64,000 bases of DNA, from the NCBI GenBank assembly GCA_963726255.1, contig CAVSBL010000002.1:1120001-1184000 (forward strand), given 5' to 3'. The DNA comes from Candidatus Bathyarchaeota archaeon (GTDB taxonomy: Archaea > Thermoproteota > Bathyarchaeia > 40CM-2-53-6). The position numbers were made by a program, and so were the translations under genes. Shown piece after piece: positions 11,393 to 20,844 of this stretch (within the stretch, counting starts at the first letter, position 1; the number at the start of each line of letters is the position of its first letter). The notes beneath the pieces were generated by a model that searched no databases, had not been told where the DNA came from, and worked only from the letters and a program-made list of their open reading frames with translations.

Positions 11393-12025
11393 TTACTGTG
11401 TGGCCCATGTGGGAATGCAATGGAAAGGTGATTTGGCTTCGAATTCGGGGATTGGGTTGGACCTGACAAACTCCCTTCCCTTAGTCAACGCCAAATAATT
11501 CAATGACATCAGGCTTTCCTTCTTCCCTGCCAAGAAATACTTCAACGATTCTTTTACGCGGGCATCAGTAACTTGTGGGTGGCACAACTGAATGAAGGCA
11601 CCGTACATTACTGCGTTAGCAAACATCTTCGTATCCTGCACCTCCGTTGGAAACTCACTCCTCAATTTATCTGCAATCTCCGTTGCTGGAATACCGAGCG
11701 CCTTGACATCATCGCGGTCGACATCAGTGGCTATTAGCGACGTGTTGTAGAGGACCAATCCGTTCGACCGAAGGTAGTTGAGGAAATCCATTGATGGTTG
11801 GTTCATGATTATTTCAACGTCGGGTTCCTCGGCTATCGGGTTGTCAACTTCCTCGTCCGAGATTACGACATAGCATTTTGCTTTCCCACCACGGGTCTCG
11901 GGGCCGTAGGATGGAGTGTATGCGACATGTTTGCCCTCTAGCATAGCCGTGTAGGCTATGTAGTCGCTGAGGAGCAGGACGCCCTGGCCACCGTGCCCAG
12001 CTATGAGAACCTTGGTCTTGGTCAT
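11393..12025 (-). CDS. 2-oxoacid:ferredoxin oxidoreductase gamma subunit
   Basis: AGHGGQGV, PSYGPETRGG. Confidence 0.93.
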   Translation of the reverse strand: MTKTKVLIAGHGGQGVLLLSDYIAYTAMLEGKHVAYTPSYGPETRGGKAKCYVVISDEEVDNPIAEEPDVEIIMNQPSMDFLNYLRSNGLVLYNTSLIATDVDRDDVKALGIPATEIADKLRSEFPTEVQDTKMFANAVMYGAFIQLCHPQVTDARVKESLKYFLAGKKESLMSLNYLALTKGREFVRSNPIPEFEAKSPFHCIPTWATQ

Positions 12026-12822
12026 TGCTTCTCAACTCCGAACTTATCCTTGTACACGCCAAGCGGGAACTTCTTGGCCATGTGCTCGTACACGAATCGC
12101 TTCGCATCTAGGATTGGCAACTTCCAGTTTATCGAGCAGGTGCTCAGAAGTTCAACGAAGGCGAACCCGCCTAATTCCTGGACTTTGAAGGCGTTCTGGA
12201 CAGATTTCTTCGCGTCGAGGAGGTTCTTAATCGTGTACACATTGCCCCTCGGGCTCGAAATCTCTTGAACTGCTAGGCTTGCACGTTTCACATAGGCTGC
12301 ACCGTCTATTCCTGAGAGAAGCTTTGAAACATCGAGCTCGGTTCCTGTCATGGCTGCGTCCCTTCCGAAGGGTGTCGTCGTTGTGACCTGCCCTTCCAGT
12401 GTTGTGGGGGCCATTTGGCCGCCGGTCATGCCATAGATTGCGTTGTTTACAAGGAACACTGTGATCGGAGTGTTTCTCTGCGCTGCGTAGACCAATTCCA
12501 GAAGGCCGATCGATGCAGCGTCCCCGTCCCCCTGAACTGTAAAGACGGTCAGTTCTGGCTTGATCCTCTTTAGGCCTGTAGCAACTGCTGGCGCCCTTCC
12601 GTGGGCCGCCACGATATGGTCGCAGTTGAAGTAATTGTAGGCCAGAACGCTGCAACCTACTGAGTCTATCATAACCGTTTTTTCGCGGATTCCTAGTTCA
12701 TCCATAGCGGCCGCGATTAGTCGCGTTAGTGTTCCATGTTCGCATCCTGCGCAGTAGTGCGTTGGGTTGTCGGTCAGGGATTCTAGTTTGCCAACCTTTG
12801 TCTTGAGGGTGATTTGGCTCAT
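12022..12822 (-). CDS. 2-oxoacid:ferredoxin oxidoreductase beta (TPP-binding) subunit; start ATG 12822
   Basis: YCAGCEHG, VGCS, HGRA, GDGDAASIG...NNAIYGMTGGQ. Confidence 0.93.
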   Translation of the reverse strand: MSQITLKTKVGKLESLTDNPTHYCAGCEHGTLTRLIAAAMDELGIREKTVMIDSVGCSVLAYNYFNCDHIVAAHGRAPAVATGLKRIKPELTVFTVQGDGDAASIGLLELVYAAQRNTPITVFLVNNAIYGMTGGQMAPTTLEGQVTTTTPFGRDAAMTGTELDVSKLLSGIDGAAYVKRASLAVQEISSPRGNVYTIKNLLDAKKSVQNAFKVQELGGFAFVELLSTCSINWKLPILDAKRFVYEHMAKKFPLGVYKDKFGVEKQ

Positions 12823-13895
12823 GCTGCAACAACCTCCAGTCGTCGGAGTTTGCTTTCTATTTCGGCTTCGGTTGGGACGATTCCACCCCACTTGCCTAGA
12901 AAGTCGACTGTGACTCCTTCGCCAACCGCTAGTCTCACGTCTTCGTACATCTGGCCGGTGTTCAATTCAATGTCCAAGAATTGTTTTCCTTCTGATGCAA
13001 GTTTTCTGAGTGCAAGCGTGGGAAATGGCCAGAGGGTGATTGGTCTGAAGAGGCCGACCTTAACGCCTTTCGAACGAAGTCGATTGATGACGCCCTTTGC
13101 GATGCGTGACACAATTCCGAAGGCGACGATGACCTTCTCCGCATCTTCTGTCATGTAAGCTTCAAACCTGACCTCATTCGCTTCAGCTTGCTTGTACTTC
13201 TCGAAAATCCTGCCCATGTGTTTGTAGTGCTTTTGGTAATCGAGTTCAAGCGAATTAAGTATGTGCGGCCCGCGGCCCTTGGCGCCAGTAGCCGCCCAAG
13301 AAGAGACATCGTACTTCTCCGGCGTGAACTCGGGGAACACGACGTCCTCTTTCAGTTGCCCTGTGAAGGCGTCTCCCAGAATTAGTGCTGGGTTTCGGTA
13401 CTTGAAGGCTAGGTCGAAGCCAATTCTTGGGAAGAGGGCCATCTCTTGGACTGAGGCTGGGGCTAGGACAAATAGCCGGTAATCCCCATGGCCGCCTCCT
13501 TTTGTTGATTGGAAGTAGTCGCTCTGTTCCGGACCAAGGTTTCCTAGGCCCGGCCCTGCCCGGCAGATGTCGACGACCAAGAATGGAAGCTCCATTCCAG
13601 CCGCATACGACAACCCCTCCTGTTTCAGGCTGAACCCGGGGCTAGAGGTCGCGGTCATCGCTCGTACTCCACCTGACGCGGCCCCGATGACCATGTTGAT
13701 GGCTTCTAGTTCACTCGCAGCCTGCAGGAAAAATTTGAAATCTGGGTATTTCTTGTTGCCAAACTCTCTTGCTAGGGTTTCCGGAATTTCACTGGATGGG
13801 GTAATTGGGTAGGCGAAGTACGCATTGAGCCCGGCCTCGAGTGCTCCGTATGCCACGGCCTCGTTGCCTTTCAGGTAAACTCGTTGCTTCGGCAT
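12819..13895 (-). CDS. 2-oxoacid:ferredoxin oxidoreductase alpha subunit (VorB-like)
   Basis: GNEA, YPITPSSE, TSSPGFSLKQE, GPGLGNLGPEQSDY. Confidence 0.93.
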   Translation of the reverse strand: MPKQRVYLKGNEAVAYGALEAGLNAYFAYPITPSSEIPETLAREFGNKKYPDFKFFLQAASELEAINMVIGAASGGVRAMTATSSPGFSLKQEGLSYAAGMELPFLVVDICRAGPGLGNLGPEQSDYFQSTKGGGHGDYRLFVLAPASVQEMALFPRIGFDLAFKYRNPALILGDAFTGQLKEDVVFPEFTPEKYDVSSWAATGAKGRGPHILNSLELDYQKHYKHMGRIFEKYKQAEANEVRFEAYMTEDAEKVIVAFGIVSRIAKGVINRLRSKGVKVGLFRPITLWPFPTLALRKLASEGKQFLDIELNTGQMYEDVRLAVGEGVTVDFLGKWGGIVPTEAEIESKLRRLEVVAA

Positions 13896-14147
13896 CTATG
13901 CTTTCACCTGGACCTCACTGATAGCGAAATCGGGGCAGACCCAATAGCAGATGGCGCATCCCGTGCACTCACCCTTTGTCCCGCGATACGTAAATTCGGC
14001 TGGGTGGAAGCCAGCATGATTCAGCTTCGTAGAGAGCTTCAGGTTTCCTTGCGGGCAAGTAACGACGCACAGTTCGCATGCTTTGCAGCGCTCATCCAAG
14101 ATCTTTACTGAGGCTCTAGGTTGAAGAATCGTTGCGGTTTCGGTCAA
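13896..14147 (-). CDS. 2[4Fe-4S] ferredoxin, delta subunit of the oxidoreductase
   Basis: CKACELCVVTCP and CTGCAICYWVCP. Confidence 0.93.
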   Translation of the reverse strand: MTETATILQPRASVKILDERCKACELCVVTCPQGNLKLSTKLNHAGFHPAEFTYRGTKGECTGCAICYWVCPDFAISEVQVKA

Positions 14148-14563
14148 GCCTTCACGACCTCCTTCTTATCAACGAAATTTTCCAACACGTAACGGAGCAT
14201 AGCGTAATGCTGTTCTTCATCCAAAGCGAGCATCGTGAACAAGGTCTTTAAGTGCGGGTCTCTGACCTGCGATGTCGCTGAAGTGAAGAGTCGTAGCGCG
14301 TTTTCCTCCATGTCCATCAAGCGCAGTAATTCTTCCCGACTTTCGTTGACGGGTGCAAGTCCTTCCCACTGGTTTGTGGCGAGGTAGCTGATTGCGCAGT
14401 TGATGACATCGGCATGTTGCATGGTGTCCCGCATGAGTTTGGTGTAGAGAATCTTGACGACGCTGTGCTTGGTTTCTCTGACCTTCTTGGCATAGACTTC
14501 GGTTTCATGTTCTTCGTGGTCTAGCTGCTCATGCAGCAAAGCCAAGAGTTGCTCGTTTCGCAT
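14144..14563 (-). CDS. Ferritin/rubrerythrin-like four-helix di-iron protein
   Basis: E...Y, DTMQH, E..A, DEEQH repeated iron-ligand pattern. Confidence 0.75.
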   Translation of the reverse strand: MRNEQLLALLHEQLDHEEHETEVYAKKVRETKHSVVKILYTKLMRDTMQHADVINCAISYLATNQWEGLAPVNESREELLRLMDMEENALRLFTSATSQVRDPHLKTLFTMLALDEEQHYAMLRYVLENFVDKKEVVKA

Positions 14564-14647: not shown

Positions 14648-15871
14648 TCACGTCGTTTCTCGCGGCTTCACTAGCAGCAAAGCCGAAACTGCACCAAACA
14701 ACGCTGCCGCGCTGCCAGCCATAAGCGCGAAGAAGAACCCCTTCGTGACTTCCAGAATGTAACCAGTCAAGACGGCCACGACGATTCCGGCGACGTTTCC
14801 CCCGAAGTTTTGAACGCCACCCATCGTCCCCGTGAACTTCTTCGGTGTCGCTTCAACTAGCGCAACCCAGAGTGATGGCGTTGCGAATCCGAGAGCTGCT
14901 CCTGCGAGGCTCAAGGCAAACAATGCGGAGTAGGGATCTGGGGCGTAAGCGGTCGCGAACAGCATAATTGATGCCCACACCATTCCGAGCGCAAAGAGCT
15001 TGTTCCGGAGTCCAACTGGGGAACCGCCCCGTTTTACAAGATAGTCTGAAACTACGCCACCAACCAGAAGCAATGTCACAACAGCGGATAACAGCGGAAG
15101 GGTTGAGAAGATACCCGCGTTGAGAATTGTGAACTTCTGTTCACGAACAAGATACGTGGGCAGCCAGAGGTTCAAGTAGTAGGCCACATACCCCTGACCG
15201 AAGCTAGCTAAGGTAAGTCCCAACCCCAAAGGACTGATCACTACAGGGATGCTTCCGCGAAGGTCCGTTTTCTGTTTCAGTCCCTTTCTTGGTATCCGCC
15301 CTCGAGGGTTGTCCTCGAATACAAGAAGCCATACGGCACACCAAAAAAGCCCGAGAAGCCCTGTAGCGAAAAATGCCCATGGCCAGCCGTATACGACGGC
15401 CAACCATGCTGCGAACGGAAAGGCGAGCACAGGACCTAGTCGGCCGCCTGCGATCCAAATCGATGTTGCTCGCGCCCGCTCTTCCTTCTTGTACCATCCG
15501 GAGGAGGATACCTTCGCCCCAGACACAAAGTTTGGTGCTTGGGTGACGCCGAGAGCGGCGCGGAGCGCGAAGAGGGCGAAGAAGGAGTTTGCGAATCCTG
15601 TGGCAATGGTTAGTATTGATGTAGCTAACCCGCCGACAAATAGGCTCAGCTTCGCGCCGAACCGGTCTGTGAGAAGACCGGCAACTGGCTGAAGAAGCGT
15701 ATAGATCCATAGGAATGCTGAGAGTGTGAGTCCCAGTTGGAAATCGGACATGTGGAGATCGCTTTGGAGGATCGGCGCAACTGGCGACAAGTTGACCCGG
15801 AGTACGAAGGTTACGAAGATTCCTGCACTCGTGAGAATGGCCATGGTCCAGCGGTTGCGTAGTGGGTCCAT
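14648..15871 (-). CDS. MFS transporter (ACS/galactonate-like)
   Basis: 12 hydrophobic segments, RVNLS, GLLTDRFGAK, WY..EERA. Confidence 0.92.
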   Translation of the reverse strand: MDPLRNRWTMAILTSAGIFVTFVLRVNLSPVAPILQSDLHMSDFQLGLTLSAFLWIYTLLQPVAGLLTDRFGAKLSLFVGGLATSILTIATGFANSFFALFALRAALGVTQAPNFVSGAKVSSSGWYKKEERARATSIWIAGGRLGPVLAFPFAAWLAVVYGWPWAFFATGLLGLFWCAVWLLVFEDNPRGRIPRKGLKQKTDLRGSIPVVISPLGLGLTLASFGQGYVAYYLNLWLPTYLVREQKFTILNAGIFSTLPLLSAVVTLLLVGGVVSDYLVKRGGSPVGLRNKLFALGMVWASIMLFATAYAPDPYSALFALSLAGAALGFATPSLWVALVEATPKKFTGTMGGVQNFGGNVAGIVVAVLTGYILEVTKGFFFALMAGSAAALFGAVSALLLVKPRETT

Positions 15872-15893: not shown

Positions 15894-16679
15894 TTACTGT
15901 GGGACCGGGACCATGTTGGCAAGCGCCATATCTGACAGAGTGTACTTCCTAAGATTGGCGATTTGCGGCTGGGTCAGGGTTGTACAAGCAAATCCCCAGT
16001 GGAACGATATCCAATCCCCCGGCCTGGCGCCTCTCACAAAACTTCGGCCTTGAACGTCGGCGAGAACCTTGGTCTTGGTTGTTTCACCCAAGGATAAGCG
16101 GCCGTTGATGCGTAGGACCGGTTCGTACTCGACGATCAAATTTCCCTTGTCGTCGGCTTCCAGTATTTTTCCCCAAGAGATGCGGCACTTGTCCATCAAT
16201 GCTCCCACCTCATCATCAAGTCCAGTGGCGTTCGCAAACGCATCCGGAACATTGCCACTCATTGAGAAAGCGTTGAAGACGTGAAGTGCGTGGTGGGGAA
16301 AAGCGGCGTACGGCTGCGTATCGAATAGTTTCTTTATTTGCTCCTTCGAGAATTTTGCCTTCAACCGTTCCCTTAGGTGGTCATAGAATTCCCCGGGCGA
16401 AATCTTCTCAAGAAGATCATTTCCGATCCAGTAGGCTTCGACGGCGCGGTAATCGAAGGGGTTGTCGGCCCCCACAGACTTGGCGATGAAACGAAGATAA
16501 GGGTAGGCAGCCTGGAAGCCTTCCAAGGCTTTGATCAATTTCTTGCTAGGCTTGTTGCTCAAACACGCGTCGAGTAGGACGTCGTTTTCATCTGGTCCGC
16601 AATAGCCCAAGCGGTTCGGCATGAAGCTATGTCGGGCAGCGAGAATTGCTCCGTCGACTCCACGTGAACTCAACTCCAT
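15894..16679 (-). CDS. DUF6390-family protein with HypC-like C-terminus
   Basis: PNRLGYCGP, YPYL, VEAYWIG, PHHALHVF, MDKCRISWG, GDWISFHWG. Confidence 0.8.
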   Translation of the reverse strand: MELSSRGVDGAILAARHSFMPNRLGYCGPDENDVLLDACLSNKPSKKLIKALEGFQAAYPYLRFIAKSVGADNPFDYRAVEAYWIGNDLLEKISPGEFYDHLRERLKAKFSKEQIKKLFDTQPYAAFPHHALHVFNAFSMSGNVPDAFANATGLDDEVGALMDKCRISWGKILEADDKGNLIVEYEPVLRINGRLSLGETTKTKVLADVQGRSFVRGARPGDWISFHWGFACTTLTQPQIANLRKYTLSDMALANMVPVPQ

Positions 16680-16689
16680 GCCCCGCCTT

Positions 16690-16917
16690 CTAACTTCCTT
16701 GCAGTTCGCGAATTATCTTCCAAGCTTCCAGCGTCTCTTCTGCCTCTCGGTTAGAGAGAACCCTAATTGCGAAACCGCCTTGAACTAGAACATAGTTGCC
16801 AATCTGCGCATTGACGAGGGAGATGTTCACGTTGTCCCTTACGCCGTCGGCGCCGTAATCCACCGATGCAGAGTCACCCCTGATCGCCACGACTTTGCCG
16901 GGGAAACTGAGGCACAC
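16690..16917 (-). CDS. hypC: Hydrogenase maturation chaperone HypC (His to Gln variant)
   Basis: MCLSFPGKV N-terminus; GNYVLVQGGFAI. Confidence 0.88.
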   Translation of the reverse strand: MCLSFPGKVVAIRGDSASVDYGADGVRDNVNISLVNAQIGNYVLVQGGFAIRVLSNREAEETLEAWKIIRELQGS

Positions 16918-17060
16918 CGTGGGACACTCCTATAGGTACCTGTTTTCCAAGGCTATATGTTTGTAATGCTGTCCCCAAGATTGGGATGGGGATTTGCTCC
17001 GGAAATCAGCAACCACCTTCATAACCCGATATACCCAAGCCCGGCCTAGGTGCGTTAGAA

Positions 17061-17744
17061 TTGACTAGGCCATCCGAAGTCGTCACCTCCGCGGAGGGCG
17101 AAGTATTCGACGTGGAGCTTGAGGTTGACATCCTAAAAGAAAACCAACGCCTCGCCGACGAGAACAAGAAGAAGCTGGGTGTGAACAAGATCCATGCGAT
17201 CGACGTTATGGGTTCCGTGGGGTCAGGAAAAACCTCCCTCATCAAGGCTATAGTTTCGAAACTCAAGCACAAATACCGAATCGCAGTCATTGAGGGCGAT
17301 GTAACGACGACGATTGATTCTGAACTCATCGCATCTGAGGGAGTTCCGACAGTTCAGGTCAACACTGGCAAAGAATGCCACTTGGACGCGAACCTGATCA
17401 AGAAAGCTTTGGATCGACTGCAACTCGACCGGCTCGACCTGATATTCATCGAGAATGTCGGAAACCTGATTTGCCCAGCCGAGTTCCCGCTTGGGTCTGA
17501 CAAGCGGTTGGTCGTGATCAGTGTGACGGAGGGCCCCTACATGGTTCTCAAACATCCAATGATGTTCCTAGGCGCCGACGTGGTAGCCATAAACAAGGTA
17601 GACTTGGCCAAGGCAATGGAAGTTGAACCCAAGAAACTCAGCGCGGACGTTGCTAGACTGAACCCGAAGGCCGTTACGTTGCACACAAGCTGCAAGAATG
17701 GAGAAGGGGTTGAAGCAGTCGTTAAGGCGCTCGGCTTGAGCTAG
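17061..17744 (+). CDS. hypB: Nickel-insertion GTPase HypB
   Basis: GSGKT, ECHLDA, ENVGNLICPAEF, NKVD. Confidence 0.95.
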   Translation: MTRPSEVVTSAEGEVFDVELEVDILKENQRLADENKKKLGVNKIHAIDVMGSVGSGKTSLIKAIVSKLKHKYRIAVIEGDVTTTIDSELIASEGVPTVQVNTGKECHLDANLIKKALDRLQLDRLDLIFIENVGNLICPAEFPLGSDKRLVVISVTEGPYMVLKHPMMFLGADVVAINKVDLAKAMEVEPKKLSADVARLNPKAVTLHTSCKNGEGVEAVVKALGLS

Positions 17745-17755
17745 GCGTTTGGAAT

Positions 17756-18172
17756 ATGCATGAGTTTTCGTTTGCTTCATCAATTGTAGAATCGGTTCTT
17801 GACCTGGCAACCAAGCAAGGAGCGAGTAGGGTGTTAGAAGTTCATCTGAGAATTGGAAAGCTGAGGGCCCTGTCGATTGAGCAGTTGCGCTTTTCCTACG
17901 GCATCCTTGCTGAGGGGGCCATTCTTGGAGGCTCCCAGCTCATTGTAGAGGAGTCAAATGGAAGCCTTACGTGTGGTCATTGCGGGTATCATGCTGAATT
18001 CGACCCAGAGGGCGATTCGTCCTTCCACTTTGGGATACCGCCGCTGATCTGCCCGGGGTGCGGTGGCGCTCTAAGTATCGAAGGCGGTGACGAATGCCTG
18101 ATAACGAGCGTTCGAATGGTCCTTCCGACGACCGTGGGAGGAAACCAGGCAGCGGGTAATGCCACGAATTAA
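17756..18172 (+). CDS. hypA: Nickel metallochaperone HypA
   Basis: MHE N-terminus, CGHC...CPGC. Confidence 0.95.
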   Translation: MHEFSFASSIVESVLDLATKQGASRVLEVHLRIGKLRALSIEQLRFSYGILAEGAILGGSQLIVEESNGSLTCGHCGYHAEFDPEGDSSFHFGIPPLICPGCGGALSIEGGDECLITSVRMVLPTTVGGNQAAGNATN

Positions 18173-18295: not shown

Positions 18296-19390
18296 TTGGA
18301 GATTAGAAAGGTTCAGAGAGTCGGGCATTCGACGTTAACAGTCTCCCTCCCAAGGGACTGGGTCAGGCAGGTTGGACTGAAGCAGGGAGGCGTAGTAACA
18401 CTCCGCCTTTCCGAATTCGGCGAACTCATAGTTACTCCAGGGAGTGAAATAGAATCAGAAGAAATGGCCGTCTGCAAGATAAACGCCGACGCCTGCAGGG
18501 ATCACGAATTTCTTGGTAGAATGATCACTGGGAACTACATCTTAGGCCGCGACACCATAATTATCTCATCATCGAAGGATCTGACCCCAGAACAACTAAC
18601 CGAAATCCGTAACTCAACCCGGAGGCTAAGCGGTCTAGGCATCGTGGAGCAAACTCCAAAGGAAGCAGTGGTTCAATGTTTCTTGGACCCCTCCAAGTTC
18701 ACAGTTACTGGAGTGCTATCACGCCTTCACAAAGTAGCCGTTTCAATGCTCGAGACTTCTATGCAGGCGTTAGTTGACCGGAAGTTTTCTCTAGCGGTGG
18801 AAGTGTTAGAACTCGAGAACGAAGCCGATCGGCTGTACTGGTTGATCCTGCGGCAGATATTTCGGGCAATATCGAAGATACCACTATCGCGCCATGTTGG
18901 AATAGAATCAGCAACAAACGCAGTTGGTTACCGTGCTGTCTCGAAATACTTCGAAGAGATGGCTGACTGCAGCGAGTCAATCGCTAGCTTAGTACTCTCC
19001 ATGGCTGATGAAAACTGCGCCGAATACGCCACTGTAATTGACGAAGTGTGCAAGTTCGGAGCTGAAACTCTCGCCATATCGAACAGTGCGATGGATTCGT
19101 TGAGCATGCTGGATGTCGAGTTAGCTAACCAAGTAATCGCACGCTCAAAGCACGCTGAGGAACATGAAAAAGACATCATAGAGCTCGTTGTATCATCTGT
19201 TCAAGAACGCAAACTGGCAATAGCCCTTAGGGGAATAGTATGGAACCTAGCGGAAATATGCCGCTCCGCTCAAATGGTCGCCGAGGTAGCAATGAACCGC
19301 TACCTTGAAAGCAATAGCGACATGTGTCAATTTTGGAAAGAGCGGAAGAACGGGGGAGACGTTCAATACCTGAAGAAGGTCGTAGCCTAG
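18296..19390 (+). CDS. AbrB-PhoU type regulator, paralog 2
   Basis: RKVQRVGHSTLTVSLPRDW; ENEADRLYWL; clearly similar to 8372-9442. Confidence 0.9.
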   Translation: MEIRKVQRVGHSTLTVSLPRDWVRQVGLKQGGVVTLRLSEFGELIVTPGSEIESEEMAVCKINADACRDHEFLGRMITGNYILGRDTIIISSSKDLTPEQLTEIRNSTRRLSGLGIVEQTPKEAVVQCFLDPSKFTVTGVLSRLHKVAVSMLETSMQALVDRKFSLAVEVLELENEADRLYWLILRQIFRAISKIPLSRHVGIESATNAVGYRAVSKYFEEMADCSESIASLVLSMADENCAEYATVIDEVCKFGAETLAISNSAMDSLSMLDVELANQVIARSKHAEEHEKDIIELVVSSVQERKLAIALRGIVWNLAEICRSAQMVAEVAMNRYLESNSDMCQFWKERKNGGDVQYLKKVVA

Positions 19391-20844
19391 ACTCATTCTT
19401 TGAACCCAAATCCATAGCCATCGTAGGCGCATCGCCCACACCTAGCCGCATAGGCTACGTGATGGCCCAAAACATGGTGACCAATCACGCGAGAGGAGTC
19501 TTCAAGGGCGAAGTCTACCTCGTAAACCCGAAACGCAACGAAATCCTCGGCCAGAAAAGCTATCCGTCAATCTCAGCGATCCCAAACCCCATCGAGACAA
19601 TTCTAGTCGCGATACCCGCTGTAGGAGTCCCAGACGTAATTGAAGAAGCTGGAAAGATGGGGACAAAAGCAGCTATCGTGATATCGTCAGGTTTCGCAGA
19701 GGTCGGCAACCGAGCGTTAGAAGAACAACTCGTAGATGTGGCAAGAAGATACGGCGTCAGAGTAATAGGGCCCAACTGCCTAGGAATCTACGATGCCTAC
19801 ACTGGAATGGACACGCTGTTCCTTCCCGAAACAAAATTCCTTTCCGACGGCCGCGAAGTCGTTGCCACCCCGCGGCCGAGACCTGGTTCGGTTTCGTTTC
19901 TAACCCAAAGCGGAGCCTTCGGCGCGGCAGCGCTGGACTACATGGCAGGCCATGGAATGGGTATACGCGGATTCGTTAGTTACGGAAATAGGTGCGACGT
20001 GACGGAAGACGAACTCCTTGAATACTTCGCAAACGACCCCCAAACCAAAGTTATCCTCATGTATGTTGAAGGCCTAGCTAAGGGACGGAAGTTTCTCGAG
20101 AGAGCGAAGGACACGACGCGAAAGAAACCTGTCGTCGCGCTCAAGTCAGGCAGGACTGAGGCAGGAACAAGGGCCGCGGCATCCCATACAGCAGCGTTAG
20201 CTGGAATAGAACAAATCTACGAGGGAGCATTCAGGCAGGCAGGAATCATAAGGGTTCGAAACGTTGAAGAACTCTTCGACTTTGGGCGCGCATTAGCCCT
20301 ACAGCCACCCGGTTACACTCAGAGCGTAGCCGTTTTGACGAACGCTGGCGGACCAGGAATCATTGCGGCGGATGCGTTGGAAGAATCAGGATTGAAGGTC
20401 CACAAATTCTCCGAACGAATTATGACACAGTTTGATGCCTTCAAAGCGAAGAAGCTACTTCTACCAGTACTTTCAGGGTTTAATCCGATGGACCTTTCAG
20501 CCGAGGCCACGAGCGAAATGTTTTCGCTTGCCCTCTCAACGATCTTGGACGACCCCGAAATAGGAGGGCTTGTGTTGATTACATTGCACCATGCGCCAAC
20601 AATTCTTGATGATGCTGTAGATAAGATCGCGAAAACTGTACCCAAGTACGGCAAACCTGTTACAGTCTGCGACATGGGCGGGACCGAAATGGCAGAAACC
20701 ATGAGAATGGCGTTTGAGAAAAGGGGAATACCGTCTTACTCAGTGCCCGAAAGGGCCGCACGCGCCCTCTGGGCATTGGTCTACTACGGGACTTATCTGC
20801 AAGACCATGGTGTCGTAAAGGCCGCAGGGGAAATCGAAGCCTAG
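19324..20844 (+). CDS. ADP-forming acetate/acyl-CoA synthetase alpha subunit; start uncertain
   Basis: PKSIAIVGAS, GPNCLG, SHTAALAG (phospho-His), TNAGGPG, NPMDL. Confidence 0.92.
   Translation: MSILERAEERGRRSIPEEGRSLDSFFEPKSIAIVGASPTPSRIGYVMAQNMVTNHARGVFKGEVYLVNPKRNEILGQKSYPSISAIPNPIETILVAIPAVGVPDVIEEAGKMGTKAAIVISSGFAEVGNRALEEQLVDVARRYGVRVIGPNCLGIYDAYTGMDTLFLPETKFLSDGREVVATPRPRPGSVSFLTQSGAFGAAALDYMAGHGMGIRGFVSYGNRCDVTEDELLEYFANDPQTKVILMYVEGLAKGRKFLERAKDTTRKKPVVALKSGRTEAGTRAAASHTAALAGIEQIYEGAFRQAGIIRVRNVEELFDFGRALALQPPGYTQSVAVLTNAGGPGIIAADALEESGLKVHKFSERIMTQFDAFKAKKLLLPVLSGFNPMDLSAEATSEMFSLALSTILDDPEIGGLVLITLHHAPTILDDAVDKIAKTVPKYGKPVTVCDMGGTEMAETMRMAFEKRGIPSYSVPERAARALWALVYYGTYLQDHGVVKAAGEIEA

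Follow-up and report, generated by a model that had tools for sequence, protein, structure and literature searches.

Our analysis concerns a protein of the DUF6390 family (PF19927) encoded in a 64,000-nt stretch of a Candidatus Bathyarchaeota genome (GenBank assembly GCA_963726255.1, contig CAVSBL010000002.1, positions 1,120,001 to 1,184,000; hereafter the window), beside hypC and a divergent hypB-hypA pair, and indicates that this protein is very probably a HypC-derived maturation factor for [NiFe] hydrogenases. The protein consists of a HypC-like domain joined to an N-terminal helical domain, four of its Cys and His residues are conserved nearly throughout the family, its gene is linked to hypC, hydrogenase and permease genes and in places fused to hypC or a permease gene, and in the genomes sampled its distribution is almost exclusive with that of HypD and HypE. 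The first-pass annotation of this DNA had read DUF6390 as a HypC-fusion metallochaperone within a variant maturation module; its observations held, and the maturation reading gained support from the HypC-like domain, the His-less HypC and the missing HypD, HypE and HypF, while its account of the client and of how general the His loss is had to be corrected.

The DUF6390 protein covers nearly the whole family model (residues 9-256 on model positions 4-239 of 244; gathering cut-off 25 bits), and its likeness to HypC emerges from profiles rather than pairwise comparison. Plain BLASTP of the window DUF6390 against the window HypC gave no match (best E 0.62), and the same protein matched neither PF01455 nor TIGR00074 at E<=0.01. 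At the level of the family, PF01455 was matched at E<=1 by 31 of 115 members (best 4e-7), the top two PDB matches of the family profile were both Thermococcus kodakarensis HypC (2z1c and 3vyr, E 0.013-0.014), and an hhalign comparison of the C-terminal domain profile with a HypC profile returned 95.1% probability and E 3.3e-8 over 71 columns. The profile alignment to T. kodakarensis HypC sets Cys165 onto Cys2 and the GDxVSxHW motif onto GDWVIVHTGF. An AlphaFold model (predicted template modelling score 0.89; local confidence in Table 1) has helices up to residue 165, followed by a beta domain and a closing helix, so that DUF6390 is predicted to share the OB barrel and C-terminal helix of HypC/HupF proteins. 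In a fold search with this model (VIA, 48,161 chains), HypC 2z1c_A ranked first (Z 5.5, root-mean-square deviation 2.2 Å), with 71/71 residues placed onto model residues 165-254; Foldseek returned nothing at E<=0.001, HypC chains taking ranks 2 and 3 with E about 0.026. The likeness exceeds chance, and the C-terminal domain is genuinely HypC-like. Profile, profile-profile and fold searches thus agree with what had been seen by eye at the C-terminus, and the structural comparison suggested for residues ~160-261 found the HypC fold. The peptides quoted in that first alignment were likewise all located in the translations where they had been placed, namely CRISWGKILEADDKGNLIVEY, PGDWISFHWGFACTTL, YCGP and PHHALH in DUF6390, and CLSFPGKVVAIRGDSASVDY and IGNYVLVQGGFAIRVL in HypC.

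Within this domain, the retained Cys and His pair that the annotation had pointed out corresponds to Cys165 and His227, which align with Cys2 and the conserved His of HypC. The His belongs to the VxVHxGFA motif and has a role in E. coli HypC. DUF6390 departs from the HypC/HybG/HupF family (PF01455, TIGR00074; structures 2z1c, 3vyr and, for E. coli HypC, 2ot2) in that its Cys does not stand free right after the initiator Met but occurs at position 165 of 261, preceded by a helical domain of 164 residues that matches no known fold, and also in its length (about 75-100 aa in HypC) and in coexisting with a separate, true HypC. Conservation extends to the N-terminal domain as well: in an alignment of 115 family members, H130 and H227 are present in 115/115 and C27 and C165 in 114/115, the family has no more than three conserved Cys positions, and the four residues occur together at 26/26 genome loci. 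The N-terminal domain is entirely helical in the full-length model and when modelled alone (pLDDT, the predicted local distance difference test, 80). Its best scores against solved folds were weak (VIA Z 4.2, Foldseek E 0.92), so we assign it no fold by name, and an ESM Atlas search with residues 1-164 gave no usable match. The family as a whole comprises about 1,000 clusters at 50% identity.

The HypC encoded beside DUF6390 is a true member of its family, clearing the cut-offs of both HypC models (Table 1) and beginning M-C-L-S-F-P-G. Its motif reads YVLVQGGFA, with Gln in the position of the His of VxVHxGFA, as first reported. The His is present in all five HypCs that we compared from HypD-bearing Bathyarchaeia (three from the window's own family), each of which adjoins hypD. 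It is absent from the DUF6390-adjacent HypC at 19/19 genome loci, at 36/36 Bathyarchaeia-like and 19/26 distant metagenome loci, and in 11/16 Chloroflexota cases. The proposed tie between His-less HypC and DUF6390 therefore stands as a strong tendency, total in Bathyarchaeia, and is no rule outside them. Neither of the two outcomes that the annotation had named as refuting its reading, a missing HypC fold or no association of His-less HypC with DUF6390, came about.

The host genome (G000; 2.42 Mb in 5 contigs, one of 2.36 Mb; 98.5% complete, 9.3% contamination) encodes three [NiFe] large subunits in which the RxCGxC and DPCxxC motifs are intact. Two have Hdr-like neighbours and are themselves followed by a HycI-like endopeptidase gene, and the third is of the membrane-bound group-4 type; HypC and DUF6390 are each encoded once. 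A local hidden Markov model (HMM) scan of the whole genome placed no hydrogenase gene in the window, the nearest lying at C2:1311480 (window end C2:1184000). HypD was found nowhere in G000, whether the search used PF01924 or a local HMM made from the HypDs of Bathyarchaeia; no HypF exceeded the cut-off (best 35.5 bits vs 466.1), and neither did any HypE (best 130 bits vs 251.6). G000 accordingly lacks the canonical HypABCDEF set in which HypD, HypE and HypF accompany [NiFe] genes. The annotation was thus right that the window holds neither hydrogenase nor HypDEF, and for HypD and HypF the absence extends to the entire genome. Because G000 has three [NiFe] hydrogenases and DUF6390 sits by hydrogenase genes at 12/13 bacterial loci (below), we identify the client as these hydrogenases and not as an unspecified Ni enzyme. 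We weighed whether the best HypE-like open reading frame (ORF) of G000 is a divergent HypE and decided against it: its 130 bits are close to the 111 of ThiL, it has no C-terminal Cys and its neighbours are unrelated. It encodes an AIR-synthase-family protein, and similar matches, of 141-144 bits, occur in two other genomes (G407 and G408).

Across genomes, DUF6390 and HypD rarely coincide. Any HypD match was seen in 2/69 DUF6390 genomes, one of the two truncated, and the genomes of 26 DUF6390 loci have a large subunit in 26/26 cases, HypD in 2/26, HypE over cut-off in 2/26 and HypF over cut-off in 1/26. Among 251 Patescibacteria sampled, 53 carry a large subunit; 23 of these have DUF6390, 13 have HypD and none has both (Fisher p = 1.9e-4 for the exclusion, with kin not independent). 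HypE follows HypD, being over cut-off in 10/13 HypD-bearing Patescibacteria, in 0/23 with DUF6390 and in none of the rest. In Chloroflexota, where 43/401 sampled genomes have DUF6390, HypE was found in 0/5 DUF6390 genomes; these include G814, a single 2.24 Mb contig that gave no HypD or HypE match. As a control, 151 Bathyarchaeia contain HypD in 119 cases, a large subunit in 125 and both in 116 (lists compared by eye), and DUF6390 occurs in G000 and in none of the other 150. Within the family to which the window belongs, hydrogenase and HypD are present in 3/3 genomes of one genus, and two sister genera score 0/8 for large subunit, HypD and DUF6390 alike; the lineage of the window may have regained hydrogenases jointly with the DUF6390 module. 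The co-occurrence test that had been suggested for DUF6390 and hypDEF hence gave near-exclusivity with HypD and HypE in the sampled genomes. One genome in which they meet is G406, a Bathyarchaeia-like bin labelled Acidiferrales, with a HypD frame of 299 aa that starts at model position 71, a convergent, split HypE (pieces of 247 aa and of 80 aa, the latter ending PRIC) and no HypF. These genes may be decaying relics of the canonical system; a bacterial contaminant was rejected as the source of the HypD, which shares 71% identity with HypD from the family of the window.

The genes around DUF6390 point to the same clients. Bathyarchaeia, Patescibacteria and Chloroflexota all have it in hydrogenase clusters, beside HypC and an EamA or MFS permease, a permease being its commonest neighbour. 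Of 13 bacterial genome loci, 12 place DUF6390 within a [NiFe] hydrogenase cluster of group-3b type and 11 place it directly downstream of EamA, and none has HypD, HypE or HypF within 4.5 kb. Among metagenome loci with upstream DNA, HypC lies within 1.5 kb in 36/37 Bathyarchaeia-like and 25/37 distant cases; the MFS gene adjoins DUF6390 in 13/23 Bathyarchaeia-like loci with enough downstream DNA, and HypD appeared in 0/80 metagenome loci, as searched in the retrieved flanks. Chloroflexota have a large subunit within 10 kb at 14/20 loci. In a third context, which also includes HypC-DUF6390 fusions (L100, L118), the large subunits are 1h-like and accompanied by Rieske and HycI genes; EamA-DUF6390 fusions account for 6/7 longer homologues. 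The clients thus comprise Hdr-linked group-3, group-4, 3b-type and 1h-like hydrogenases, a range that fits a core factor and not a class-specific one.

From these observations we infer that DUF6390 acts as a dedicated scaffold. The ligands proposed for the Fe(CN)2CO unit (PMC8692609) are HypD Cys41 and Cys2 of HypC/HybG. DUF6390 resembles the HypC-HypD complex (PF01924; 3vyr) in occupying the gene slot after hypC, in offering Cys and His residues which, jointly with a HypC-type Cys, could bind iron, and in hardly ever sharing a genome with HypD among those sampled. In the mechanism that we propose, a HypC-type OB domain, its Cys165 now internal and its His227 kept, would have been joined to a new helical domain bearing Cys27 and His130 (along with His129 and His133), and these residues would form one iron-binding site in a single chain, the counterpart of the HypC-HypD interface. 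The His-less HypC, which keeps Cys2, would dock on this site, collect the iron unit and deliver it to the large subunits, which would then receive nickel from HypA and HypB and be cleaved by the endopeptidase. The permease of the operon (MFS here, EamA in bacteria, at times fused) would import something that the module needs. The HoxV/HupK scaffolds of O2-tolerant hydrogenases are likewise proposed, in a review (PMC12134894), as extra holders of the iron unit between assembly site and large subunit, alongside HypC-type proteins; they are homologous to the large subunit and act after HypCD, whereas DUF6390 is HypC-derived and mostly occurs without HypD.

Our confidence differs between the parts of this proposal. 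Because HypD, HypE and HypF are absent from G000 and most lineages sampled, the module most likely replaces at least the HypD scaffold step; that DUF6390 itself takes over this step here we consider about evenly balanced, and we give the same middling weight to a HypC-derived iron-site scaffold operating without HypD, HypE and HypF in G000. The full version, in which Bathyarchaeia, many Patescibacteria and Chloroflexota make the Fe(CN)2CO centre without the three proteins, on a DUF6390 site of C27/H130 and C165/H227, from a permease-supplied precursor and with hand-over to His-less HypC, is offered tentatively and is distinctly less probable.

Several points weigh against the scaffold proposal. 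The HypC-like Cys is internal, whereas canonical HypC needs a free N-terminal Cys. HypD has alpha/beta domains with [4Fe-4S] site motifs; DUF6390, with an N-terminal domain modelled as all-helical, has no PF01924 match, no [4Fe-4S] Cys motif and, as predicted, no HypD-like alpha/beta Rossmann domains. We found neither a source of CN or CO nor any partner equivalent to HypE or HypF, and clustering of 799 neighbouring ORFs disclosed no further universal partner. Most of the genomes compared are metagenome-assembled genomes (MAGs), with relatives that are not independent, and the HypD count of 0/20 in Chloroflexota covers genomes with DUF6390 alone (the first 20). One genome, G419, combines DUF6390 with intact HypD, HypE and HypF, DUF6390 there not being near hydrogenase genes, and in P0395 (460 aa, from a high-GC contig) the C-terminal half of hypE is read through into the DUF6390 gene, which makes the two genes adjacent on that contig; the DUF6390 part of P0395 appears frameshifted near the Cys165 region. 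Finally, both HypD and a recognisable DUF6390 are missing from 17/53 Patescibacteria with a hydrogenase, which indicates that other maturation solutions exist.

Two features of Patescibacteria without HypD and DUF6390 are recorded here in their own right. In two of them, a HypC domain fused to a radical-SAM enzyme (CxxxCxxC; 435 and 491 aa) is encoded adjoining a 3b-type hydrogenase; the fusion is reminiscent of HydG/HydE in [FeFe] hydrogenases and may represent a third maturation route, and tblastn of the HypC-fused radical-SAM protein against G000 found no homologue. In four, the slot of DUF6390, flanked by EamA and the small subunit, is occupied by an ORF of ~245 aa. Because it scores ~0 bits with the DUF6390 HMM, we left it out of the DUF6390 counts; it carries FHHFGV, which aligns with the SxHWG motif, and may be a very divergent DUF6390 relative or an analogue.

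The main rival to the scaffold is a sensor or regulator, in which the Cys/His site of DUF6390 would bind nickel, iron or a small metabolite and gate the permease or, when fused to a helix-turn-helix (HTH) domain, transcription, so tuning the supply for assembly. N-terminal HTH domains of four kinds (GntR, ArsR, PadR and XRE) are fused to DUF6390 in P0129, P0135, P0137, P0139 and P0160; the complete fusions retain C27, H130, C165 and H227 and are scattered over the tree, from which we conclude that the family also serves as the sensor module of one-component regulators. HTH fusions of this variety, together with permease fusions, are typical of sensor domains and count against a scaffold, and the co-occurrence with canonical Hyp proteins in G419 and with hypE in P0395 also suits a sensor. 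The permease partner and both sorts of fusion, none of which figured in the first-pass annotation, keep this explanation alive, though on balance we think it doubtful. It accounts neither for the missing HypD, HypE and HypF nor for the fact that DUF6390 and HypD never coincide in the 53 Patescibacteria or the 20 Chloroflexota. The HypC-DUF6390 fusions and the complementary His loss in HypC point instead to a joint chemistry with HypC, and the permeases resemble organic-anion or amino-acid carriers and not known metal carriers, with all NCBIfam matches under cut-off (that of the window permease is best with TIGR00893, the D-galactonate transporter subfamily, at 217 bits).

DUF6390 could also be an extra, client-specific HypC paralogue in the manner of HybG, HupF or HoxL, with ordinary HypD, HypE and HypF overlooked through incompleteness or divergence. 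The HypC-like domain and the predominance of MAGs would be in keeping with this, but we consider it very unlikely: the gaps are found in a genome as complete as G000 and in the single contig of G814, the HypD model succeeds in 119/151 same-class genomes and 13 Patescibacteria, the HypD HMM made from relatives finds nothing in G000 either, and the clients come from several hydrogenase groups. Least probable of all is service to another enzyme, be it a different nickel enzyme or the products of the 2-oxoacid:ferredoxin oxidoreductase (OFOR) and rubrerythrin-like genes that lie past the MFS gene here and are matched in size and order at most of 13 Bathyarchaeia-like loci, since in lineages other than Bathyarchaeia it is hydrogenase subunits, HypC, HypA and endopeptidase that constantly accompany DUF6390, not OFOR.

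In the window itself, hypC, DUF6390 and the MFS gene are co-directional and separated by 10 nt (hypC to DUF6390) and 22 nt (DUF6390 to MFS), and on the basis of shared strand and short gaps we read them as one operon divergent from hypB-hypA (Table 1). The MFS gene is followed downstream by a rubrerythrin-like gene and a four-subunit OFOR; at most of the 13 genome loci of the Bathyarchaeia-like kind, ORFs with the sizes and order of these come after the MFS gene or DUF6390. Directly past hypA, one protein combines a MazE/AbrB-type DNA-binding domain with two PhoU domains, and its gene overlaps the start of an ORF that inspection by eye suggests to be an ADP-forming acetyl-CoA synthetase. An Rfam scan of the window gave no match.

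Table 1. Positions of the genes and domains discussed. Coordinates are those of the window unless a locus or contig is named.
Feature	Position	Strand	Details
DUF6390 gene	15894..16679	-	261 aa; PF19927 E=3.2e-55, 187.7 bits; AlphaFold (AF2) pLDDT 90
N-terminal helical domain of DUF6390	16188..16679	-	residues 1-164; Cys27 (YCGP), His129/His130/His133 (PHHALH)
HypC-like OB-fold domain and helix of DUF6390	15894..16187	-	residues 165-261 and stop codon; internal Cys165, His227
hypC	16690..16917	-	75 aa; GTG start; Cys2 kept, Gln for conserved His; PF01455 76.8 bits (cut-off 28.5), TIGR00074 61.7 bits (cut-off 48)
MFS permease gene	14648..15871	-	407 aa; PF07690 E=7.8e-56
hypB	17061..17744	+	227 aa; divergent from hypC; TIGR00073 248.4 bits vs cut-off 121.2
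hypA	17756..18172	+	138 aa; PF01155 82.5 bits; TIGR00100 75.6 bits, under cut-off 88.1
Rubrerythrin-like gene and four-subunit OFOR	11393-14563	-	downstream of MFS gene
MazE/AbrB-PhoU gene	18296-19390	+	DNA-binding domain and two PhoU domains
ORF read as ADP-forming acetyl-CoA synthetase	19324-20844		by-eye reading
HypE-like ORF of G000	G000:C2:938199-939092 (L006:1399-2421)		340 aa; AIR-synthase family
HypD/HypE of G406	L044:404-2364		convergent
HypC-radical-SAM fusion	L139:5302-6606	+	435 aa
HypC-radical-SAM fusion	L141:5309-6781	-	491 aa
~245-aa ORF in DUF6390 slot	L130:11401-12252	-	
~245-aa ORF in DUF6390 slot	L131:10850-11701	-	
~245-aa ORF in DUF6390 slot	L132:11512-12465	-	
~245-aa ORF in DUF6390 slot	L138:7577-8410	+	

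A full-text literature search returned no paper naming DUF6390, and a second search, for organisms lacking hypD, had none on natural HypD-less organisms among the matches listed. Jaffe et al. 2020 (PMC7304191) report a HypC-like family near hydrogenases of the candidate phyla radiation, in a main text from which the words 'maturation' and 'hypD' are absent. A 2025 review (PMC12134894) treats all six Hyp proteins as a requirement of any [NiFe] hydrogenase. In three distant lineages, near-complete genomes nonetheless encode canonical-looking hydrogenases with HypA, HypB, HypC and endopeptidases, and are without HypD, HypE and, where tested, HypF; what the three lineages have in common in the same gene slot is an unstudied HypC-derived protein and a permease. 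As [NiFe] hydrogenases are present and three supposedly indispensable proteins are absent, these organisms may assemble the metal centre by another route. If HypD, HypE and HypF are indeed replaced, the Fe(CN)2CO centre would be made in a second way, with a bearing on the still unsolved question of where its CO ligand comes from, and hydrogenases could be produced in other hosts from fewer genes. The inference of hydrogen metabolism from metagenomes would change as well, since missing hyp genes are now usually put down to incomplete bins. Even a more modest reading gives the DUF6390 family a function class and four testable residues.

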